Shown here in pieces: positions 9,118 through 19,329 of a DNA stretch of 64,000 bases. Origin of the DNA: a virus. Lineage: Duplodnaviria; Caudoviricetes. The first letter of the stretch is position 1. Each line of letters begins with the position of its first letter. The stretch lies in IMG/VR virus record IMGVR_UViG_3300023108_000002; one strand, written 5' to 3'. A program made the position numbers and the translations under genes. The notes beneath the pieces were generated by a model that saw nothing but the letters and a program-made list of their open reading frames with translations, was not told the origin of the DNA and searched no databases.

Positions 9118-9125
9118 TATAAATA
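9118..9125 (+). promoter_or_regulatory. T4-type late promoter
   Basis: Exact TATAAATA in an intergenic region, about 40 nt upstream of ATG 9164. Confidence 0.8.
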
Positions 9126-9163: not shown

Positions 9164-10492
9164 ATGGCTTATAATTATAGACCAAAATCATCCCAAGATA
9201 TAAAAGATCTTGGGGTGGTAATGAGTAAAGAAAAAGTTTTGGTTTCATTATTCGAAGAAATGAAATCGAACTTTGGAAAATCTTTTGATGAATTTATTAC
9301 AATAGAGACAGGTAGCGCAGGATTCGGAAACGCAAAGATTCTTAATGATTTTAAGAATATGGTCGATATAAATTCATATAAGAAAAAATATATAGGAATA
9401 TCTCTTAAATTTGGAAATGGATCTAATCCAAGTAGTAATGCTCCTACTACTCAACAACAAGAATTAATTACTCTTAAAATATTTGAAGAATTATTATCTA
9501 GTAAAACAAAAAATTACAAGAAATTCGACCAATTGCTTCCGACACTCTTAGAAATATATCCCAATCTTCCATATGAAAAGTCTTGGTATAATTCGTTTGA
9601 ATTGCAATTTAATCAAATCGAAAAAGAAACCAAACTACCCAATAGTACATTTGATGTTTATAATCGTGATGGTGGATTTATGGATTATATATCAAAATTA
9701 GTAAATAGTAAGTTTGATATTGCAAAGAAAGATTCGTGGAATCCTGCTGATATATGGCTTTTAAGGTCGTCTGCTTATAAAAAATACGAAGCGATGTTAA
9801 ATGAAGCGGTTAGTATTCAAGAGTGTAATGCCATATTAGTTTCTGCGTATAATAATACAGACATTGTTGGTATTTCTTTGAAAAAGAATGATGGAAAAAA
9901 ATTAAATTATGATTTAATAAATTTAAAATCTTCTACTAAAGAAAGTTCTGTAGACTATTCAAAGTTTCTTTTAAATATTCCATATAATGAAAAAACAAAG
10001 TCTTTTACTTCGGTTACTAGTCAATTAGAAGTAAAATACCAAAACAAAACTTATCGTATGGGAGTAAAAAGCAATCAGGCTCAAATTGGAAACATCACAT
10101 ATGAGTTTGTTGGAACTGGAGCTGCTGCGTTTTTAGGAAAAGTTCCAAAAGATATGTTGAAACTTGAATTAAAAAAAGATGGATACTTGATGCCAGAACA
10201 CACTCATTATATGAAGTTTGATAGGAAAGATTTTGAAAATAAAATATCGGTTATAAAAAGAAATAAAACACTTTTTACAATTGATGGAAATTTAGATAAA
10301 TTTGTAGACCAACTTGAAGAATCTTGGTCAAAAGGAAGAAGTAAAGATAATGTTGTTATATCTCAAATCGTATGTTTTGCATATATTATAGCAAATTTAT
10401 CATTATCTAGAAGAAAAGAGTTTATAAGGGATTTATTTTTTATGGCACAGAAAAAAGGCCCAATGTTCGGCCCATTTGGAAAGTTATACTAA
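9164..10492 (+). CDS. hypothetical protein with putative PD-(D/E)xK-like nuclease motifs
   Basis: TTQQQE helix, WNPADIW, IVGISLKK. Confidence 0.55.
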   Translation: MAYNYRPKSSQDIKDLGVVMSKEKVLVSLFEEMKSNFGKSFDEFITIETGSAGFGNAKILNDFKNMVDINSYKKKYIGISLKFGNGSNPSSNAPTTQQQELITLKIFEELLSSKTKNYKKFDQLLPTLLEIYPNLPYEKSWYNSFELQFNQIEKETKLPNSTFDVYNRDGGFMDYISKLVNSKFDIAKKDSWNPADIWLLRSSAYKKYEAMLNEAVSIQECNAILVSAYNNTDIVGISLKKNDGKKLNYDLINLKSSTKESSVDYSKFLLNIPYNEKTKSFTSVTSQLEVKYQNKTYRMGVKSNQAQIGNITYEFVGTGAAAFLGKVPKDMLKLELKKDGYLMPEHTHYMKFDRKDFENKISVIKRNKTLFTIDGNLDKFVDQLEESWSKGRSKDNVVISQIVCFAYIIANLSLSRRKEFIRDLFFMAQKKGPMFGPFGKLY

Positions 10493-11748
10493 TGAAAAGT
10501 TTTAGAACACATTTAAACGAATCAAAAGAAGGTAAAAATTTACACCTAGAACATCTTGAAGATGAAATTATTAATAATGGTATTAATGGTGCAAGAGGCG
10601 CAGTAAACTTTTTAAGAGCCCTTAGAGATATGTTATCTGGTTCTGCTACTTCTAAGATCAATATGACCGTAAAGTGGGACGGAGCTCCAGCAATTTTTGC
10701 TGGTACTGATCCTTCCGATGGTAAGTTTTTTGTCGCAAAAAAGTCTGTATTTAATGCAGTGCCATTGTTGTATAAAAGCATAGATGAAATTGAAACAACT
10801 TCCGACTTGTCGCCAAACCTAAAGTCAAAATTTAAAGTTGCATTTTCAGAGTTTTCCAAGTTGGGAATCAAAGATGTTATTCAGGGCGACCTGATGTATA
10901 CTGATGAAAGAGAAGAAAAAACTTTGGATGGCAAAACTTATATTACATTTCAACCAAATACATTAGTATATGCTGTTCAAAAAGACTCTTCTATTGGAAA
11001 AGAAATTTCTGCATCTAAGGTTGGTGTTGTTTGGCATACAACATATAAAGGAAAAGATTTGCAAGGAATGACAGCTTCATTTGGAGTTAATATTTCTGGG
11101 CTCAAGAAAACATCTTCAGTTTGGATGGATGATGCAACATTTAAAGATGTTTCTGGGACTGCTAAGTTTACTGCATCTGAATTGAAAACTCTTAATGGAC
11201 AACTCTCATCTGTCGGTAGAAAATTCAAAAAAATCAAAGCAAATGAATTTAATTCATTTTTAGAAATTCAGAATAAAACATTGGTGAAAGGATTGTCTGG
11301 TGCAAGTTTCAAAACTTTCTTGAATGCATACATCAGAGAAGGAAAGAATATTTCGACAAAAAATTTGAAAAACTTTGATTATTCAATGTATGTCAAAAAT
11401 TATTTTGATAATAAGATAATTTCCAAATTGAAAACAGAAAAATCACGTCAAATAAAAGAAGAATTAAGAGATGAATTGGTCAAAAAACTAATCAAGTTAG
11501 ATTCGGTTGTATATGCGATAGTTGACTTTATGGAAGAAATGATTGCAGCTAAAACTCTAATCGTAAATAAACTAAATAGTATTAAACAAATGACGGATAT
11601 TTTTGTTAGAACTGATAATGGTTATAAAGTAACAAATCCAGAGGGATATGTTGCAATTGACCACACTGGAACTAATGCTGTGAAACTTGTAGATAGAATG
11701 GAATTTAGTTATAACAACTTTACCGCAGCAAAGGCATGGGACAAGTAA
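10492..11748 (+). CDS. putative ATP-dependent ligase-like covalent nucleotidyltransferase with capsid-targeting-like N-terminus
   Basis: KWDG (K61, motif I), QGDLMY, PEGYVAID, VKLVDR; N-terminus MKSFRTHLNE. Confidence 0.6.
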   Translation: MKSFRTHLNESKEGKNLHLEHLEDEIINNGINGARGAVNFLRALRDMLSGSATSKINMTVKWDGAPAIFAGTDPSDGKFFVAKKSVFNAVPLLYKSIDEIETTSDLSPNLKSKFKVAFSEFSKLGIKDVIQGDLMYTDEREEKTLDGKTYITFQPNTLVYAVQKDSSIGKEISASKVGVVWHTTYKGKDLQGMTASFGVNISGLKKTSSVWMDDATFKDVSGTAKFTASELKTLNGQLSSVGRKFKKIKANEFNSFLEIQNKTLVKGLSGASFKTFLNAYIREGKNISTKNLKNFDYSMYVKNYFDNKIISKLKTEKSRQIKEELRDELVKKLIKLDSVVYAIVDFMEEMIAAKTLIVNKLNSIKQMTDIFVRTDNGYKVTNPEGYVAIDHTGTNAVKLVDRMEFSYNNFTAAKAWDK

Positions 11749-12852
11749 ATGGACATAATAAGAATTATAGAAAGACTTAGATTGGAAGAAGGTGTTAACG
11801 ATCCTTCTATTTTTAAAGCAGTATTTCTTGCCGGCGGGCCCGGTTCAGGAAAATCTTTTATTGTGGGAAAAACTGCACTTACTTCTCTTGGAATGAGAGT
11901 TGTAAATTCAGACCCAGCGTTTGAAAAGGCACTTGCAAAGGCTGGACTTGAAATGACACCAGACGATATTTGGTCTGATGCTGGTCAGACTGCCAGAGTT
12001 CGAGCAAAAAAAGTAACATCCAAACAACAATCTCTCTATGTACAGGGTAGATTGGGATTGGTTATTGATGGTACGGGAAAAGATTATGAAAAGATTGCAA
12101 AACAAAAAGCTCAGTTAGAAAAACTTGGTTATGAAACTGCAATGATTTTTGTAAACACAAATTTAGAAACGGCCGTTGCTAGAGATGCCGCGAGAAGCAG
12201 GACGCTTGGTGCCGCCGAAGTTGGTAAGATGTGGAAAGGAGTTCAAGATAACATTGGAAAGTTCCAAAGAGCATTCAAATCAAAAATGTTCATTGTTGAT
12301 AATTCTGATGGCGCAGATTTTGAAAGAGATGTTATGGCAACATATAGAGCAATTTCATCATGGGCAAAGAAAACTCCTGAAAATAAAGCTGCTCAAAAAT
12401 GGATTTCTGGACAAAAGGCAAAAAGAAATATTAAAGAAGAAACTTTAGAGGAACAAAAGTTTTCGGACAAAGAAATCAAAATGGCTATAGGCGTTGCATC
12501 TGATAAGCGTTATAAAGATGGTAATATGACAGGCGCAGTTAAAGCAATTGATAAAATCAAAAAAGGTTTATCTGACCACCCACAAGTTAGGGCTGTTTTG
12601 CGGAGACAAAATGAAAATATTTCTGAAGAAAGAGATTTTGTGGGCGAGACTGCCGAAATGATGATGCGCGACATGATAATCATGCAAAACAAATTAGATG
12701 AACTTATAGATGCAATGGAAGAAGAGATGGGAAGACCTCAGATAGAGAAATTTGAAATCGAACCTTGGATTGTATCTAAAATTACAAAAGCCAAAGATTA
12801 CATCGATTCCGTGTATGATTATAGTATAATGGATGATCTGGATTTTGAATGA
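11749..12852 (+). CDS. P-loop kinase (zeta-toxin/AAA_33-like) fused to two small C-terminal domains
   Basis: FLAGGPGSGKS, NSD, LVIDGTG, lid R..R; C-terminal blocks separated by IKEETLEE and ENISEE. Confidence 0.75.
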   Translation: MDIIRIIERLRLEEGVNDPSIFKAVFLAGGPGSGKSFIVGKTALTSLGMRVVNSDPAFEKALAKAGLEMTPDDIWSDAGQTARVRAKKVTSKQQSLYVQGRLGLVIDGTGKDYEKIAKQKAQLEKLGYETAMIFVNTNLETAVARDAARSRTLGAAEVGKMWKGVQDNIGKFQRAFKSKMFIVDNSDGADFERDVMATYRAISSWAKKTPENKAAQKWISGQKAKRNIKEETLEEQKFSDKEIKMAIGVASDKRYKDGNMTGAVKAIDKIKKGLSDHPQVRAVLRRQNENISEERDFVGETAEMMMRDMIIMQNKLDELIDAMEEEMGRPQIEKFEIEPWIVSKITKAKDYIDSVYDYSIMDDLDFE

Positions 12853-13145
12853 TGCAAAGCTTTGCTCAATTTTTGGACGAAGGAATTAAATTCAAGTTAA
12901 TCCGTGGCAAAGACATGGATGTTTTAAAGATGTGGAATAAGGGCGATAACAAATGGGTAGAATTAAGAGGCAAGCCTGGTTTTGAAACCAGATATGACCC
13001 TAAAGACCCATTACATAAAGCAATAACTGCGTTAGGAAAATCTGCTAACATATCAGATTTTATGAATGGAGATGAAGTAAGTATTAATCCAAAACATCCA
13101 GACGCTAAGAAGGCGTTGAAAACAATACAGGGTTTGATGAAATGA
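12849..13145 (+). CDS. hypothetical protein with capsid-targeting-like N-terminus
   Basis: (M)MQSFAQFLDE start; overlaps both neighbours (ATGA). Confidence 0.7.
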   Translation: MMQSFAQFLDEGIKFKLIRGKDMDVLKMWNKGDNKWVELRGKPGFETRYDPKDPLHKAITALGKSANISDFMNGDEVSINPKHPDAKKALKTIQGLMK

Positions 13146-13678
13146 AAAGTTTTAGACAGTTTCAAAATATTGAAGAGATGGTAGAATATCATGTTATTAG
13201 TGAAATTCCATTATTAGATAATGTATTTCGTTTAGGATCGAATGCATTTTTTGAAACTTTTAATATTGCAAGAAAAATGTATGAAGAAGGAAAACTAGAA
13301 TTCGATTCATATGATATAGAAATTCTTGAAACAGATATTGGAAAGTGGGAATTGTTTGAAAATGAACATGTCCCGCTCGATTGTCCTTTTTTGGTTGAGG
13401 AAGAAAAAGATGTAGAATTAAATTCTCCCAAAAGAGGCGGTAACAAGAAATACTATGTTTATGTGAAAAATGAAAAGGGAAATGTTATAAAGGTTGAGTT
13501 TGGAGATACAACTGGATTGACTGCAAAAATTAATAACAAAGAAGCTGCTAGAAATTTTGCAGCAAGACATAATTGCGATCAGAAAAACGACAAAACAAAA
13601 CCTGGCTACTGGGCATGTAGATTGCCTAGATATGCAAAACAACTTGGATTGAGTGGAGGCGGAAGCTATTTTTGGTGA
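13142..13678 (+). CDS. two-domain hypothetical protein with capsid-targeting-like N-terminus
   Basis: MKSFRQFQNIEE start; C-terminal KKYYVYVKN...V.FG...ARHNCD...GYWAC domain after LVEEE. Confidence 0.75.
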   Translation: MKSFRQFQNIEEMVEYHVISEIPLLDNVFRLGSNAFFETFNIARKMYEEGKLEFDSYDIEILETDIGKWELFENEHVPLDCPFLVEEEKDVELNSPKRGGNKKYYVYVKNEKGNVIKVEFGDTTGLTAKINNKEAARNFAARHNCDQKNDKTKPGYWACRLPRYAKQLGLSGGGSYFW

Positions 13679-13682
13679 TACT

Positions 13683-13958
13683 ATGAGACCTTATATGGAA
13701 TGGATGGAAGAAGAAAGCTGTATTTTAAGAGAATTTAATGAGGATGTAGATAGTGAAGAATTGGTTTGGCATAGAGACAAAAATGATAGACTAGTTCGTA
13801 TTATGGAATCTGATGGATGGTTTTTTCAATTTGAAGATGAATTTCCTTTTGAGTTATTGAAAGGAATGTGGTTGAAGATAGATAACCACAGATATCATAG
13901 AGTAATAAAAGGCGATAACAATGGGAGTTTATTAATCAAAATTTACGAAGGGGGATAG
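13683..13958 (+). CDS. cupin-like small protein
   Basis: ELVWHRD...GWFFQ...YHRVIKG; start refined to ATG 13683. Confidence 0.55.
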   Translation: MRPYMEWMEEESCILREFNEDVDSEELVWHRDKNDRLVRIMESDGWFFQFEDEFPFELLKGMWLKIDNHRYHRVIKGDNNGSLLIKIYEGG

Positions 13959-13959
13959 A

Positions 13960-14181
13960 ATGTTTCATCAGTTGCTTGATATTCATTTATCTAATATAAA
14001 AAAGTTTGATGATGTAATGAATACCAATTATTTACAAGAATATAAAAAAATAATGTGGCATGCCCTGAATGAATTTGAAAAACCGTTGATGAGTGCTGTT
14101 TTTACAAATGGTAGACAGTGGAGAAAACTCAAAGACCAATTTTTGTATGTGCCAGAGGAAGGAACTAAAAATGACAGATGA
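13960..14181 (+). CDS. hypothetical protein
   Basis: 73-aa ORF with GGGG SD, packed between neighbours. Confidence 0.6.
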   Translation: MFHQLLDIHLSNIKKFDDVMNTNYLQEYKKIMWHALNEFEKPLMSAVFTNGRQWRKLKDQFLYVPEEGTKNDR

Positions 14182-14551
14182 CATAGATTTTGGATTTACT
14201 GCCGTTGACGAAGAAGAGCTGAGAAGTATTGCACCTTCTCCGGCATCTAATGAAGTGTCAGAAAAACTTGAAAGCACTGGAGAAGGACTCAAGTTATTAG
14301 AATATAAAATGGACAATTTAGTTGATAAACTTGGTGAAATGTTAGACGAAGTTGAAACGGTGAAGGAATTTTATAATAACGAAAAAGTAATTGTAAATTC
14401 TAAGTTGAAAGATGTTGAAAATCTAATTTTACCTCTACTAAATAATTTGATGAAAAATAAAGAAAAAGAGTATATTTACTGGCCAAACCGCGAAGCAATT
14501 ATCACTCAACAAATAAATCGTATAACGAATATAACAAGAGCAGAAGAATGA
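14171..14551 (+). CDS. conserved hypothetical coiled-coil protein
   Basis: Start refined to MTDDIDFGFTAVDE; PLLNNL...YIYWPNR motif. Confidence 0.75.
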   Translation: MTDDIDFGFTAVDEEELRSIAPSPASNEVSEKLESTGEGLKLLEYKMDNLVDKLGEMLDEVETVKEFYNNEKVIVNSKLKDVENLILPLLNNLMKNKEKEYIYWPNREAIITQQINRITNITRAEE

Positions 14552-17013
14552 AAGATACTGTAGTTTTTACATTTGGTAGATTTAATCCACCAACAACTGG
14601 ACATGAAAAACTAATAGAGAAAGTTGCTGCCGTCGCAAGAAGCGAAAAGGCGGATTTTATGGTATTTCCAAGTCAATCTACAAATCCTAAAAAAGACCCT
14701 CTAGATTTTAGAACAAAAGTTTCTTATATGAAGAAAATGTTTCCAAAATATTCTAAGAATATCATGTCCAATAAAGATGCAAAATCTGCTTTTAATATCG
14801 TTCCTATGCTATATAAGATGGGATATGAAAGATGTATTATGGTTGTAGGTGGCGATAGAGTTTCAGAATTTGAAACAATATTGAATAAGTACAATGGTGT
14901 TTCTGGTAGTCATGGTTTCTATGAGTTTGAAAATGGAGTTGAAATTGTTTCTGCCGGAGAAAGAGATGAAAATGCTACTGATGTAAGTGGTATGTCTGCA
15001 TCTAAAATGAGAGCAGCTGCAGCTGCTAATAGATACGAAGATGAAAAGATTGGTGGAAAAATTCTTCAAGGATTCAAGAGTGGACTTCCAAGTAAATTTG
15101 AAAGAACGCATGGAAAGAAACTCTTTGCAGACCTAAGAAAAGCAATGAACCTCAGCGAAGAAATGATCGAATTTCTTAATTCCGTTGGAGATGATTTGCT
15201 AGAGTTTATGCAAACAGATTATATGGGATATGTAGACGATGCAACTGATAACAACCTGTACAACGAGATATATGAAGAATTTTTTGCGGAAAGAAAGGTT
15301 GCTCAGGACAAAGATATCGAAGATAGAGAAGGTACACAACCTAAAAAATACTACGCAAAAGATGCAGACGGCGATGAAATGTCAAAGTCAACAAAACAAG
15401 CTCGCGCAAGACATTTCGCAAAATATGGAAAAAAATCAGACGATTCAGACAGTTCTTACAAACCAGCACCTGGCGATGCGAATGCAAAAACAAAACCCTC
15501 AAAATACACCAACCTATATCATAAAATGTATGGAGAGGATGTATCTCAAAAACAAATAGACGATTTGGAAAAATTTGCAGATAGAATGCTTGCAAAATAT
15601 GATATTGATATTACATTTACAAGACATTTTGTTGATAGAATGAATGACAATAGAAACGATCCAGAGATCAAAGTTGCAGAACTTCAAAAGTTTTTCAAAA
15701 AGATTCAGAAGAAAAAAGGTTCTCAGATCAAGGCGAACCCCGATATCGAAGCAGTTCTCAAAGACATGTCAACTAACTTAAATCTGCCTGTAGTTATCAA
15801 CTATAAGAATGGTGAGTTTGAAGTTGTACATAAAACAATCATGCGTAAGAAAAACTTCTCTACATCAAGTAAAGAATTAAAATACGAAGAGGTAGATATG
15901 AATATTGAAGAAAAACTTAACGAAATATCTAACATGCGCCGTTTGAAGCTTGTCAGCAAAATTAAGAATTCTGGTGTTGTAAAACAGGGTTCTATGTCTA
16001 AGGATAATAAAAAAGAAGCAGCAAATCCAGCTCAACAAGCTGCCATTGCTATTGCAAAGAAAAAATCGGGAAAATACGATGATGATGGAAATCTTAAAGA
16101 ATTGACATCAGCAGAAAAAAAACTTATTGATAAAATGTATGACAAAAAAGGTAACTTGACGCCATTGGGTAAAAAAGTTATGGAATATGGTAAGAAAAAT
16201 GAAAAACTAGGCAAAGATGCTGATGCTGGTGATTACATCGATGATTTTAGAAAATCAGATGCTCCGCAATTCAAAGGTAAGTCCGATGAAAAAATAAGAC
16301 AAATGGCGGTTGCCGCATATCTTAAAGCAAAAGAAAAAAATGAAACTGTTGATGAAAAAATTGCAACCAATAAAGAAAGAATGAATATGGCTGCTCTTGA
16401 TGCGTTAAAAAAATTGATTGCATCAAAAGGTGATAAACAGTCTTTAAAATCATATGTATATACTATCGCTAAATCTTTCAGTGGAGTGTCGGGTAAAGAT
16501 TTAGAGACTCTTTATAGAAATTCTATTAAAGAACAAGTTGAACTTGATGAAGAAAGATGGAAATATAAGGGCGACACAAATTACAAAGTAGGTGGTAATC
16601 TAAGATATGATGATAAGTTAGATTACAAACTTTCAAAGGCAGATGCTGATATTTTAAACAAATACATGAAACAAGCTAAAAATGATGCAGCACGTAGTAA
16701 AGTGTGGAATATGTTCTGGGATTCAAAAGAAACAGGTAATACGGCCAAGGGCCCAGAAAAAGCGATCAAATTTGCCAAAAATTCTATCAAAGAAGAACTA
16801 GATGAACAAATCGAGGGACTTAAAAAGAAAGCAGAAAAGTCGGGTATTTCATATGGTATTCTAAAAAAGGTATATGACAGAGGTATGGCTGCTTGGAAAA
16901 CAGGACATAGGCCAGGAACTACTCCACAACAGTGGGCATTTGCTAGAGTCAATTCATTTATCACTGGCGGTGGCGCACGGAAGTCGGATGCAGACCTTTG
17001 GGCTGAAAGATAG
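14548..17013 (+). CDS. multidomain protein: N-terminal HIGH-superfamily (cytidylyltransferase-like) nucleotidyltransferase plus several small domains
   Basis: FGRFNPPTTGHEKL, VVGGDRV, SAGERD, SASKMR; later FTRHFVDR domain and C-terminal KVYDRGMAAWKTGHRPG..QQWAFARVNSF domain. Confidence 0.85.
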   Translation: MKDTVVFTFGRFNPPTTGHEKLIEKVAAVARSEKADFMVFPSQSTNPKKDPLDFRTKVSYMKKMFPKYSKNIMSNKDAKSAFNIVPMLYKMGYERCIMVVGGDRVSEFETILNKYNGVSGSHGFYEFENGVEIVSAGERDENATDVSGMSASKMRAAAAANRYEDEKIGGKILQGFKSGLPSKFERTHGKKLFADLRKAMNLSEEMIEFLNSVGDDLLEFMQTDYMGYVDDATDNNLYNEIYEEFFAERKVAQDKDIEDREGTQPKKYYAKDADGDEMSKSTKQARARHFAKYGKKSDDSDSSYKPAPGDANAKTKPSKYTNLYHKMYGEDVSQKQIDDLEKFADRMLAKYDIDITFTRHFVDRMNDNRNDPEIKVAELQKFFKKIQKKKGSQIKANPDIEAVLKDMSTNLNLPVVINYKNGEFEVVHKTIMRKKNFSTSSKELKYEEVDMNIEEKLNEISNMRRLKLVSKIKNSGVVKQGSMSKDNKKEAANPAQQAAIAIAKKKSGKYDDDGNLKELTSAEKKLIDKMYDKKGNLTPLGKKVMEYGKKNEKLGKDADAGDYIDDFRKSDAPQFKGKSDEKIRQMAVAAYLKAKEKNETVDEKIATNKERMNMAALDALKKLIASKGDKQSLKSYVYTIAKSFSGVSGKDLETLYRNSIKEQVELDEERWKYKGDTNYKVGGNLRYDDKLDYKLSKADADILNKYMKQAKNDAARSKVWNMFWDSKETGNTAKGPEKAIKFAKNSIKEELDEQIEGLKKKAEKSGISYGILKKVYDRGMAAWKTGHRPGTTPQQWAFARVNSFITGGGARKSDADLWAER

Positions 17014-17020
17014 ATAAATA
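17013..17020 (+). promoter_or_regulatory. possible late promoter (1 mismatch)
   Basis: GATAAATA, about 22 nt upstream of ATG 17043. Confidence 0.4.
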
Positions 17021-17042
17021 GTAAAAAAACTGGAGAACTCTC

Positions 17043-19001
17043 ATGACTAATAGGAAAAATATTCCCGAAGAAATTTTAGACGATGATGTAGCAGATTTCA
17101 TCGGCGCAGCTTCTGCTGCGAAGGCGGCAGGAAAAAAGAAATTTAAATTTGGTGATAAAGAATATCCTGTCACAATTTCTGATAAAATTGCAAAGACTGT
17201 TAATAAAGAAGCCGTTGTTGGTATTATGCAAAACAAGGACGATGAAAAGGTTTCCAAGGGTTCACAAAAAATGGGAAGTGCAAAAAATGAATCTTTAGAT
17301 GGAAGAACTAAAGCATTTAAAGAAAAATTGCAAAAGCTTTCCTATTCAGAGAAGAAAAAAGATGACCTAGAAAACGAGAAGAATTTTGATGGCCGCGGCA
17401 AAGAGTTCAAAGAAAAACTAGTCAAACTTGGATATAAAAAGCCTACTATGGAAGAAAGACTTCTAGAAAAAATGGGCAAATCTTCAACTGGTTATGATTT
17501 GTATCACAAAGATTTTTCATCTGCAATGAAACATGCATACGAATTTGCAAAGAAAAAATATGGTATTGATATTGATCCAAAAGAAATTGATGATAAAGTT
17601 GCCACTGGGCCTCGCAAACCAACATCTGGTAAAACCAATTCTTATCGTTTACTTGATAAAGATGGTAAAAAAGCAGTTCAAATTCAAGTATACAATATGG
17701 ACAATAAGAAATATGAATTGAATATGTATAAAGAGGAAAAGGAATTTGAACCTCATATGATGTACGACCCAAAAACTGGTAAAGGTTATAAAGCCGAAAA
17801 ACCAGAAGATCATGAACGTATGTCTAAGATGGGATATACTCATGAAAAACCAAAAATGGAAGAATTTCATTTACATGAAGCATCAATTCAAATGGTAGCA
17901 AGAGATCTCGAATCATATGCTAAAAAAGATAAAAAGGGTATGGATTATGATGATTTCATGAAAGCAGCAAAAATGATGAAAGATAATCAATTGAAAGCTT
18001 TGATTTCATTTGTGAATGATTTGGACACAGAACCAAGAGAAAAAATCCTCATGATTGTTAAGAATGTTCTTGGTAAGAAAACTGCTGAGAAAATGTTTGG
18101 GGTAAGATTTTTTGATAGTAAAATTAATGAGATTAAAGAAATGAAACAGCCCTTCGTAGTTGTTGATACTGCTGATGGTAACAAAGTCGTAGGTATGGCT
18201 TCTGATGAAAAGGGAGCAAAATCAATTATTTCCACTTCTCAACTTCCACCAATGAAAATTAAAGACAAGAAAACTTTGAAGATTGTAAAGACAAGCAAAA
18301 AACAAGATATTGGATTTCCTGTGAAAGAAGATCAAGAGGTCGATGAAGTCTCTCAAGATACTTTACGTAATTATCATGGTAAAGCAGGTGCTCAACTTAA
18401 TAAATTAAGAGATAAAAATGCTAAAGGAAAGTTAACTTTTGCTGATCTTAAAAAGGGCCAAAACAGAGCAAAAGGTCTTAATAGAGCTGCTAATAAGATG
18501 GAAGAGATTGAACTAAAAGAATTTGAAACAGAGATTGATTTACAAGAAAAACTTTCTCCAGCCCAAATCAAAAAATTAAAAAGTGAATTTGAAGACCTGA
18601 GAGGAAAGAAAATCTCTGCACAGTCAGGAATGAAACTTTCCAAAGCTTTGGACAAATTGGACAAGGAACAAACGATTGCTCTTGTTAATTTAGATTTGCC
18701 ATTCGTTTCTACTCTTGCTGTTAGCAAACTAATGATGAATTTTAACATGTCTCCAAGCGAAGTCAATAAAATAATTGATGGAAAAGATGAATCATTTGAT
18801 CCAAAACTCAAAGAAGAACTAAAAATTAAAGAATTGATTGAAAGTTCTGATAAAAAAGATGCAGAGGAAATGAAAGAAATTGTTCTTGCAATGAACCCTA
18901 AATATAATAAAAAACAGGTTCAAAAAGAAGTTGAAAAAATGGCGATGGAGAAATATGGAAATTCCTCTCGCGCTAAAAAGATTGCTAGCTACGTTAAATA
19001 A
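17043..19001 (+). CDS. large Lys/Glu-rich multidomain protein (candidate internal head polyprotein)
   Basis: 652 aa made of short blocks separated by (L/I/V)xE-rich linkers; internal duplication DGRTKAFKEKLQKL / DGRGKEFKEKLVKL. Confidence 0.7.
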   Translation: MTNRKNIPEEILDDDVADFIGAASAAKAAGKKKFKFGDKEYPVTISDKIAKTVNKEAVVGIMQNKDDEKVSKGSQKMGSAKNESLDGRTKAFKEKLQKLSYSEKKKDDLENEKNFDGRGKEFKEKLVKLGYKKPTMEERLLEKMGKSSTGYDLYHKDFSSAMKHAYEFAKKKYGIDIDPKEIDDKVATGPRKPTSGKTNSYRLLDKDGKKAVQIQVYNMDNKKYELNMYKEEKEFEPHMMYDPKTGKGYKAEKPEDHERMSKMGYTHEKPKMEEFHLHEASIQMVARDLESYAKKDKKGMDYDDFMKAAKMMKDNQLKALISFVNDLDTEPREKILMIVKNVLGKKTAEKMFGVRFFDSKINEIKEMKQPFVVVDTADGNKVVGMASDEKGAKSIISTSQLPPMKIKDKKTLKIVKTSKKQDIGFPVKEDQEVDEVSQDTLRNYHGKAGAQLNKLRDKNAKGKLTFADLKKGQNRAKGLNRAANKMEEIELKEFETEIDLQEKLSPAQIKKLKSEFEDLRGKKISAQSGMKLSKALDKLDKEQTIALVNLDLPFVSTLAVSKLMMNFNMSPSEVNKIIDGKDESFDPKLKEELKIKELIESSDKKDAEEMKEIVLAMNPKYNKKQVQKEVEKMAMEKYGNSSRAKKIASYVK

Positions 19002-19011
19002 GGAGAAAAAA

Positions 19012-19329
19012 ATGGATTTACCAAGTTGGGCAAGGCCAAAAAACTGGATGAAGAATGCAGTTGCAACTAATCGCGGTTGGGTCAACGAAAAAACTGGAGA
19101 GATGTATAAAAAGCACTCAAATTTGAAAGACAAAATTGATGCACTTGCGCCTGCAAAACCAGCACCAAAACCAAAACCAAAACCAACATCAGCACCGAAA
19201 GATGAAGGTGTAGATCTTTCAAGTATGACAAAGGACGAATTGGAAGAGTTGGGTAGAGAACATGGAATTGAGTTGGACAAGAGAAAAACTAAAAAGGATT
19301 TAGTTGCTGAAATCAAAGACGTAATATAA
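19012..19329 (+). CDS. hypothetical protein with Pro/Lys linker and C-terminal Rho-N/HeH-like motif
   Basis: AGGAG SD before ATG 19012; MTKDELEELGREHGIELDKRKTKKDLV. Confidence 0.65.
   Translation: MDLPSWARPKNWMKNAVATNRGWVNEKTGEMYKKHSNLKDKIDALAPAKPAPKPKPKPTSAPKDEGVDLSSMTKDELEELGREHGIELDKRKTKKDLVAEIKDVI

Follow-up and report, generated by a model that had tools for sequence, protein, structure and literature searches.

Two adjacent open reading frames (ORFs) in a 64,000-nucleotide stretch of DNA from a tailed virus (the window; bases 30244-94243 of the 203.8-kb IMG/VR virus record IMGVR_UViG_3300023108_000002) encode large proteins that are, judged by homology, mosaics of about 17 small modules. 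These proteins, P0001 (ORF 14548; positions 14548-17013, + strand, 821 residues) and P0002 (ORF 17043; 17043-19001, + strand, 652 residues), belong by the same measure to a very large mosaic-protein family of marine T4-like myophages (cyanophage, pelagiphage and OM43 phage relatives), and follow a plan in which small, basic, autonomous domains, among them DUF5824 and a putative RelE-like one, come after an enzymatic head. A three-residue hydrophobic-x-Glu motif is concentrated at the joints between modules throughout the family. We infer that P0001 and P0002 are packaged, cleaved at these joints and injected, and consider it an evenly balanced proposition that they are late-made internal capsid proteins that gp21, the prohead protease, cuts at module joints and that are delivered with the DNA. 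The nearest cultured relatives of the genome are the OM43 phage Melnitz, the pelagiphage HTVC008M and cyanomyophages, all T4-like members of the Kyanoviridae. In Melnitz, gp18 and gp20 are homologous to the two proteins.

Modular architecture of P0001 and P0002

Homology searches with P0002 returned more than 2,600 metagenomic relatives, and those with the P0001 tail more than 5,900; almost none were colinear with the query. Pieces of 40-130 residues from both proteins recur in these relatives in a different order, in duplicate, swapped between the two proteins' families, or behind other heads (Zeta-toxin/AAA_33 kinase, HNH, RelA/SpoT-HD, PAP2, SLT, GH19, NTP_transf_2, DUF6267 and AcrVA2-like). 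Some modules also form genes of their own: module B or module C of P0002 follows directly on a short leader in some relatives, and DUF5824 is a separate 90-residue gene in phage C48C1. A preliminary description of this DNA had divided both ORFs into blocks of 40-200 residues; these are real modules, found in other orders, in other copy numbers and as single genes, and the expectation that they would occur stand-alone or reshuffled in other phages was borne out on both counts among the relatives.

The recognised parts of P0001 are a nucleotidyltransferase head (residues 1-204), a PHROG-defined module (332-441) and DUF5824 (737-813). The head (14548-15159, + strand, as are all modules of both proteins) matches PF01467 (25.9 bits versus a cut-off of 21), phrog_3041 (E = 2.5e-70) and phrog_395, and ends in LSE. 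It carries PPTTGH (14-19) and MSASKMR (149-155) in a region modelled with a predicted local distance difference test (pLDDT) score of 85-92, and so has, in its predicted features, the (T/H)xGH signature, C-terminal SxxxxR and Rossmann-fold domain of the cytidylyltransferase-like group (PF01467; NMNAT/TagD). An acidic, low-confidence spacer with a net charge of about -12 follows (residues 205-248; 15160-15291) and ends in IYEEFFAE, an internal sequence similar to the core of the T4 leader (YQEFIAE). Module b1 (249-330; 15292-15537) has the core QDKDIEDREGTQPKKYY and ends in MYGE, while module b2 (331-459; 15538-15924; phrog_23027) has a confident alpha/beta fold followed by IEEKLNE. No Pfam match was found for b2, which has a weak structural match to RelE/ParE toxins (template-modelling scores of 0.48/0.55 over 85 residues; Atlas ParE_toxin cluster). 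Elsewhere b2 is fused to PAP2, DUF6267, GH19 and NTP_transf_2 heads.

Residues 460-753 (15925-16806) comprise about four helical modules, b3 (460-518), b4/b5 (519-603), b6 (604-668) and b7 (669-753), separated by LKE (516), VDE (601), IKEQVELDE (660-668) and IKEELDE (747-753); b4 (516-552) and b5 (552-600) shuffle independently in relatives. The C-terminal DUF5824 module (754-821; 16807-17010) matches PF19141 over residues 737-813 (E = 5e-19; 69 bits versus a gathering cut-off of 25), and in other phages DUF5824 forms stand-alone proteins of 86-93 residues (Atlas clusters). It is the most conserved module, with up to 89% identity between otherwise different proteins, and is also found fused to AcrVA2-like (PF26125), DUF5661 and DUF6321 domains and, in giant viruses, to DUF5754 (Atlas clusters).

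P0002 matched no family in Pfam or PHROG profile searches. Its first part (residues 1-142; 17043-17468) consists of the leader MTNRKNIPE, module A (13-56) and a low-confidence stretch ending in LLE; within this long stretch, residues 85-131 (17295-17435) hold two tandem copies of about 30 residues, LDGRTKAFKEKLQKLSY and FDGRGKEFKEKLVKLGY. Modules B (core KSSTGYDLYHKDFSSA) and C (PHMMYDPKTGKGY) span residues 143-279 (17469-17879) and end in LHE. Residues 280-435 (17880-18347) hold module D (280-366), which is helical (pLDDT 87-90) and ends in INEIKE, and module E (367-435), which ends in VKE..VDE. The remainder (436-652; 18348-18998) is made up of a helical hairpin (module F), module G (503-600) and module H (601-652; pLDDT 91-94), with F ending in LKE/LQE and G in LKE..IKELIE. 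Searching Pfam with single modules gave sub-threshold noise only, and at E<=1 no module showed a peptidase or a polyvalent hallmark domain (MuF, ArdC and others). Foldseek matched the P0002 model to nothing in the PDB at E<=0.001, which is a weak test because the model is multidomain.

A hydrophobic-x-Glu motif at module joints

Joints were defined without reference to the motif, as positions at which BLAST homology between two family proteins stops while both chains continue, yielding 542 start-type and 496 end-type breakpoints from 73 non-redundant family proteins. Within -8 to +6 residues of these breakpoints, [LIVFMY]xE was present at 66-68% versus 30% of random positions (z about 18) and [LI]xE at 38-42% versus 16%, and [LIV]xD was depleted near them. 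Glu was enriched 3-4-fold exactly at breakpoints and Asp was not enriched. Leu or Ile stood two residues before 23% of joint Glu residues compared with 12% of interior Glu, with no difference at the other offsets from -5 to +5; the frequency of Ala, Ser or Gly directly after the putative cut position (31% at joints versus 26% inside modules) was not informative. Since breakpoint counts are not phylogenetically independent, a count per module is more conservative. All 13 of 13 module types carried the motif in 62-100% of their distinct upstream contexts (the 12 residues before the conserved core), for example DUF5824 (97%, n = 37), module B (98%, n = 90), module E (96%) and module b1 (79% of 43). 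It had been suggested beforehand that LxE should be commoner at domain boundaries than within domains, and the motif is indeed 3-4 times as frequent at module boundaries as in module interiors, a bias specific to the residue two before Glu and to Glu rather than Asp.

Placement, rather than abundance, carries this argument. Both large ORFs contain every Glu string quoted for them in the preliminary description: LSEE (202-205), IYEEFFAE (241-248), LKYEE (444-448), IEEKLNE (453-459), LKE (516-518), VDE (601-603), IKEQVELDEE (660-669) and IKEELDEQIE (747-756) in P0001, and LLE (140-142), LHE (277-279), INEIKE (361-366), VDE (433-435), IELKE (489-493), LQE (500-502) and LIE (598-600) in P0002. In shuffled sequences, composition alone predicts 9.2 (L/I/V)xE motifs in P0001, where 15 occur (p = 0.03), and 10.2 in P0002, where 12 occur (p = 0.30). 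The remaining proteome shows much the same excess of hydrophobic/Glu pairing at i/i+2 (1.25-1.31 versus 1.30-1.41). The two genes with the highest motif density among the 117 examined encode the scaffold gp22 and the protease gp21 (ranks 1 and 2), which serves as a positive control for the density measure. Whole-protein enrichment was dropped as an argument, being undistinctive by shuffles, offset analysis and density rank. The proposal that (L/I/V)xE clusters act as separators thus holds for their placement at module boundaries and fails for their raw frequency. DNA similarity between linkers within the two genes is short (24 nucleotides at 83% identity between two NSIKE joints; 19 nucleotides between EIELKE and EIDLQE) and points neither way on whether conserved linker DNA may serve as a recombination handle.

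Predicted structure and fragments

AlphaFold2, run with fragment alignments built on full-length anchor sequences, modelled the two ORFs with pLDDT averages of 68 and 67 and low predicted template-modelling scores, which fits an arrangement of beads on a string. Confident islands coincided with the homology modules, and were joined by low-confidence, Glu-rich linkers, in line with the folded islands and disordered Glu linkers that had been anticipated. Stretches with pLDDT below 50 lie at residues 203-269, 316-330, 449-516, 598-606, 666-694 and 746-754 of P0001, with short loops of this kind inside modules at 139-147, 629-631 and 730-737, and at residues 1-12, 54-120, 135-137, 359-366, 431-441, 482-502 and 583-590 of P0002. 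In P0001, 9 of the 15 motifs fall inside such stretches and 11 within 5 residues of one; the corresponding figures for P0002 are 6 and 9 of 12 (binomial p between 0.002 and 0.02 across both ORFs). Cutting at the junction sites would yield 17 pieces of about 1-23 kDa, predicted to be basic (isoelectric point 8.8-10.2) except for the near-neutral b2 (7.0) and the 44-residue acidic spacer.

Capsid-targeting-like leaders, predicted late promoters and virion data

Internal proteins of T4 enter the prohead by means of a 10-residue N-terminal leader, MKTYQEFIAE, in which positions 4 and 7 are important for targeting and 8 and 10 for processing by gp21, which cuts after L/I-x-E and is blocked by Asp at leader position 10 (PMC9026906). 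The leader was confirmed against the T4 sequence. Many family proteins begin in the same way, with MKSFKQYVSE, MKSFSSYLTE, MRKFIDLVE, MKTIKEILAE, MKTIKQLLE, MKSFKEIRE, MKTFRQLQE or MITFKKYLEE, and the positions conserved among the 10-residue forms (4, 7, 8 and 10) are those that matter in the T4 leader. The stand-alone forms of modules B and C carry leaders such as MKSFKEIRE and MKTIKQLLE. Similarly, the nucleotidyltransferases of cultured isolates start with MKKFSAFLSE (Syn9 gp184), MKSFLQFLKE (S-SCSM1 ORF91), MKNFSSFLTE (S-CREM2 ORF154) and MKKFSEIIE (Melnitz gp18), and within the window the genes at 10492 (MKSFRTHLNE), 12849 (MMQSFAQFLDE) and 13142 (MKSFRQFQNIEE) have such leaders.

A T4-type late promoter octamer, TATAAATA (9118-9125, + strand), lies about 40 nucleotides upstream of the first gene of the cluster that ends with P0002 (9164-19001). 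The window holds six copies (9118, 24956, 38230 on the - strand, 38236, 40251 and 45251 on the - strand), which is the number expected by chance, but every copy lies between genes and is oriented towards the start codon that follows; these positions provide a usable map of candidate late promoters for this phage. The octamer also lies upstream of gp22 and gp23 in the genome, of Melnitz gp15 (in the homologous cluster) and of S-CREM2 ORF154. Between the P0001 stop and the P0002 start, GATAAATA (17013-17020, + strand) matches it at 7 of 8 positions and is possibly a second late promoter. In HTVC008M, CTAAATA precedes the homologous cluster, and both sequences are possible variant late promoters.

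The head module of the genome is of the usual type, with portal, small core protein, gp21-type protease, Glu-rich scaffold and major capsid protein. The gp21 homologue (S77 prohead protease; genome positions 10700-11338) matches PF03420 at 10718-11194 (E = 1.4e-36) and lies between the portal and scaffold genes. S-CREM2 ORF154 and S-SCSM1 ORF91 (31% and 45% identical to the P0001 head) have been detected in purified virions, and the S-SCSM1 paper notes that the enzyme is also present in the virion proteomes of two other cyanophages (PMC10665884, PMC9602691).

Proposed processing and alternative explanations

On the reading that we propose, the genes of the cluster would be transcribed late, together with the head genes, and their products would join the prohead core in the manner of the T4 internal proteins and Alt. 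The gp21-type prohead protease, proposed as the cutter because no peptidase domain was found in the modules, would then cleave after the Glu of hydrophobic-x-Glu at nearly every module joint, releasing about 8 or 9 basic fragments per protein, each of some 5-23 kDa, and also freeing the 9-residue leader from P0002. The fragments would remain with the DNA and be injected. Over evolution, modules would shift between stand-alone genes, each with its own T4-like leader, and fused strings. The wider view, that marine T4-like phages, among them the ocean-dominating cyanomyophages and pelagimyophages, carry a combinatorial arsenal of capsid-packaged, injected proteins in which the fused forms are true polyproteins cut at every joint, is held more tentatively and falls somewhat short of an even chance. 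The original idea that one gene yields many small packaged effectors released by the prohead protease is supported by the modularity, the joint motif and the linkers; it is not supported by the N-termini of the two proteins, from which the leader of T4-type internal proteins is missing.

Several observations count against the proposal. The T4 leader has to be N-terminal. P0001 has no such leader and starts at the enzyme core MKDTVVFTFGRFNPP; close relatives carry one before the same residues (MRKFIDLVE-AKDTVVFTF...) and are otherwise no different. The start of P0002, MTNRKNIPEE, is an atypical leader in which only I-P-E fits the pattern. The cluster is located among replication genes, outside the head module. 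The motif density of P0001 and P0002 is ordinary (1.8 per 100 residues, ranks 46-47 of 117 genes), and the P0001 motifs at 22, 105, 376 and 544 lie inside folded domains, where a three-residue motif is sometimes to be expected. Other Glu patterns (ExPhi, [KR]xE; Phi, hydrophobic residue) are also raised at joints, because the linkers are Glu-rich. A search for whole leaders retained at every joint gave 9 internal matches to a position weight matrix versus 10 in shuffles, so this idea was rejected; the test was weak, the matrix having mixed the 9- and 10-residue registers of N-terminal leaders. A whole leader is kept at an internal joint only in single examples. Finally, the virion mass spectrometry in relatives establishes presence only, with three peptides for S-CREM2, and the S-SCSM1 authors allow for carry-over (PMC10665884, PMC9602691).

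The main rival explanation, which we regard as rather unlikely, is that these are multidomain 'polyvalent' proteins that work intact or trimmed at their ends like T4 Alt, with the joint motif being an uncut relic of leaders from genes that later fused, or the acidic opening turn of the N-terminal helix in each module. It would account for the leaders on stand-alone modules, for the joints that keep a whole leader including its Met (..IKSFSQFISE before RK in P0144; ..MKDFSSFISE before RK in P0158) and for the motifs at predicted helix starts (P0002 595-600; LDEQIEGLKKK in DUF5824), and cleavage into every single domain is not known for most of the polyvalent proteins described (PMC5512222). However, an unselected relic should decay, whereas the motif is kept across the 13 module types while its flanks vary. 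Helix capping would accept Asp, which is not enriched at joints, and enrichment solely two residues before Glu has no helical periodicity; the preference for Glu over Asp and the single enriched position thus argue against a pure relic or helix-capping explanation.

A role as late cytoplasmic enzymes or accessory proteins (in nicotinamide adenine dinucleotide or nucleotide metabolism, or RNA repair) that are never packaged, with leaders and virion detections due to coincidence or carry-over, appears improbable. Such a role would suit the position of the cluster beside primase-helicase and ribonucleotide reductase genes, the leaderless start of P0001, and the weak mass-spectrometric signals in relatives, for which the authors mention possible contamination. 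It is at odds with the presence of the same enzyme in four independent virion proteomes, with 10-residue leaders that agree with T4 at the four functional positions and recur on unrelated modules, and with a promoter that is that of head genes. Least probable is an artefact of chance or of the composition of Glu/Lys-rich proteins in a low-GC phage. The whole-protein counts for P0002 and the neighbouring kinase gene lie within compositional expectation and the i/i+2 pairing is about as high elsewhere in the proteome, as such an artefact would predict, but it is rejected by the positional tests (z about 15-18) and by the Asp, offset and per-module controls, and is largely refuted.

Neighbouring genes

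P0001 and P0002 are the last two ORFs of a tightly packed + strand gene run (9164-19001) flanked by the primase-helicase and ribonucleotide reductase genes. Upstream of them lie a DUF6267 gene (10492-11748, + strand, 418 residues; PF19782, E = 1.4e-98), whose N-terminus is the leader-like sequence given above, and a gene for a Zeta-toxin/AAA_33-type P-loop kinase (11749-12852, + strand, 367 residues; N-terminus MDIIRIIERLRLEE). In relatives, kinase heads of this type are joined to the same modules as P0001 and P0002 and to DUF5824. The kinase ORF had been described as having the same Glu pattern; the strings are indeed present (IKEETLEE at 228-235, which is the end of the kinase domain, and ISEE at 291-294), but its (L/I/V)xE count is unremarkable (7 versus 5.8 expected from shuffles; p = 0.35).

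Two small leader-bearing genes follow, of 98 residues (12849-13145, + strand) and 178 residues (13142-13678, + strand). The latter corresponds, as a gene of its own, to the C-terminal module of Melnitz gp18, where that module is preceded by ..SSLIE; the match covers the last ~150 residues of gp18 (..HVPLDCP..KKYYVYVK..RLPRYAKQLGLSGGG..FW) and clearly reflects fusion or fission among related phages. Downstream of P0002, a strong AAGGAG ribosome-binding site precedes a 105-residue ORF (19012-19329), whose product contains a PKPKPKP spacer and, at its C-terminus, the helix-extension-helix (SAP/Rho_N-like) motif LSSMTKDELEELGREHGIELDKRKTKKDLVAEI, and is probably a small DNA-binding protein. In Syn9 (region 147500-152600), gp185, which adjoins the leader-bearing gp184, is labelled 'cytidyltransferase' but is instead a 529-residue low-complexity protein rich in Lys, Ala and Ser, with a poly-Ser run and no obvious enzyme domain.

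Implications and comparison with known systems

If the proposed processing is correct, a leader together with a hydrophobic-x-Glu motif at each joint would make it simple to tell which proteins the most abundant myophages of the ocean deliver with their DNA. A catalogue of candidate injected effectors would emerge from thousands of mosaic proteins now called 'hypothetical'; kinase, RelE-like, ppGpp (guanosine tetraphosphate)-hydrolase-like and AcrVA2-like heads are all present in the family. The 'cytidyltransferase' of most cyanomyophage genomes would be one such injected enzyme, which would also explain the repeated presence of NMNAT-like enzymes in cyanophage virion proteomes. Prohead proteases would act as polyprotein processors, and this would be the first described polyprotein strategy for internal proteins of tailed phages. 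The idea can be tested by existing methods in cultured phages (Melnitz, Syn9 and S-SCSM1).

The closest parallels are the internal proteins IPI, IPII and IPIII and the protein Alt of T4. As in T4, the phage is T4-like and encodes a gp21 homologue, family members and neighbouring genes carry leaders of 9-11 residues with the pattern M-K-(S/T)-Phi-x-x-Phi-Phi-x-E, small, basic mature products are predicted, the genes lie outside the head module (as do the T4 ip and alt genes), and enzymes are found among the cargo (Alt is an ADP-ribosyltransferase). Unlike the T4 internal proteins, which give one mature product per gene by trimming at the end, each gene here strings together about 8 or 9 modules and has a candidate site at each of their joints. 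In addition, P0001 is without an N-terminal leader, the residue two before Glu may also be Val, Phe, Met or Tyr, and the sequences are not homologous to those of the T4 proteins. The T4 core proteins gp22, gp67 and gp68 likewise have several L/I-x-E sites per chain that are cut by gp21. However, those proteins are scaffold degraded to short peptides that mostly leave the head, whereas the pieces here are folded domains, and the motif density of this phage's gp22 is 8.5 per 100 residues compared with 1.8 in P0001 and P0002.

In the giant phages phiKZ, 201phi2-1 and SPN3US, the prohead protease processes head and ejection proteins, and many non-structural head proteins are cut after Glu (S/A-x-E) with the fragments staying in the capsid (PMC9026906, PMC5694885). 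A three-residue motif ending in Glu is common to both systems, but the residue preferred two positions before Glu differs; in phiKZ-type proteins, it is mostly propeptides that are removed, and strings of shuffled modules with counterparts in single genes are not known among them. Within the literature searched, no paper described this system, or reported leaders for capsid targeting or processing of this kind in proteins of cyanophages or pelagiphages.

Polyvalent proteins combine 2-15 unrelated effector domains per polypeptide, and their delivery with DNA followed by processing has been proposed, with the processing ascribed to a built-in metallopeptidase (MPTase); cyanophage and pelagiphage proteins were outside the coverage of that study (Iyer et al. 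2017; PMC5512222). The family described here shares the defining presence of several unrelated effector or enzymatic domains in variable architectures, and has domain types in common with them (Zeta-toxin kinase, RelA/SpoT, lysozyme/SLT, BECR-type RNase-like and anti-defence). In contrast to polyvalent proteins, no built-in peptidase or hallmark domain was found here. The present family thus differs from known systems in joining modules capable of standing alone within one chain, with candidate cleavage sites at the joints and no built-in peptidase, in a marine T4-like family.

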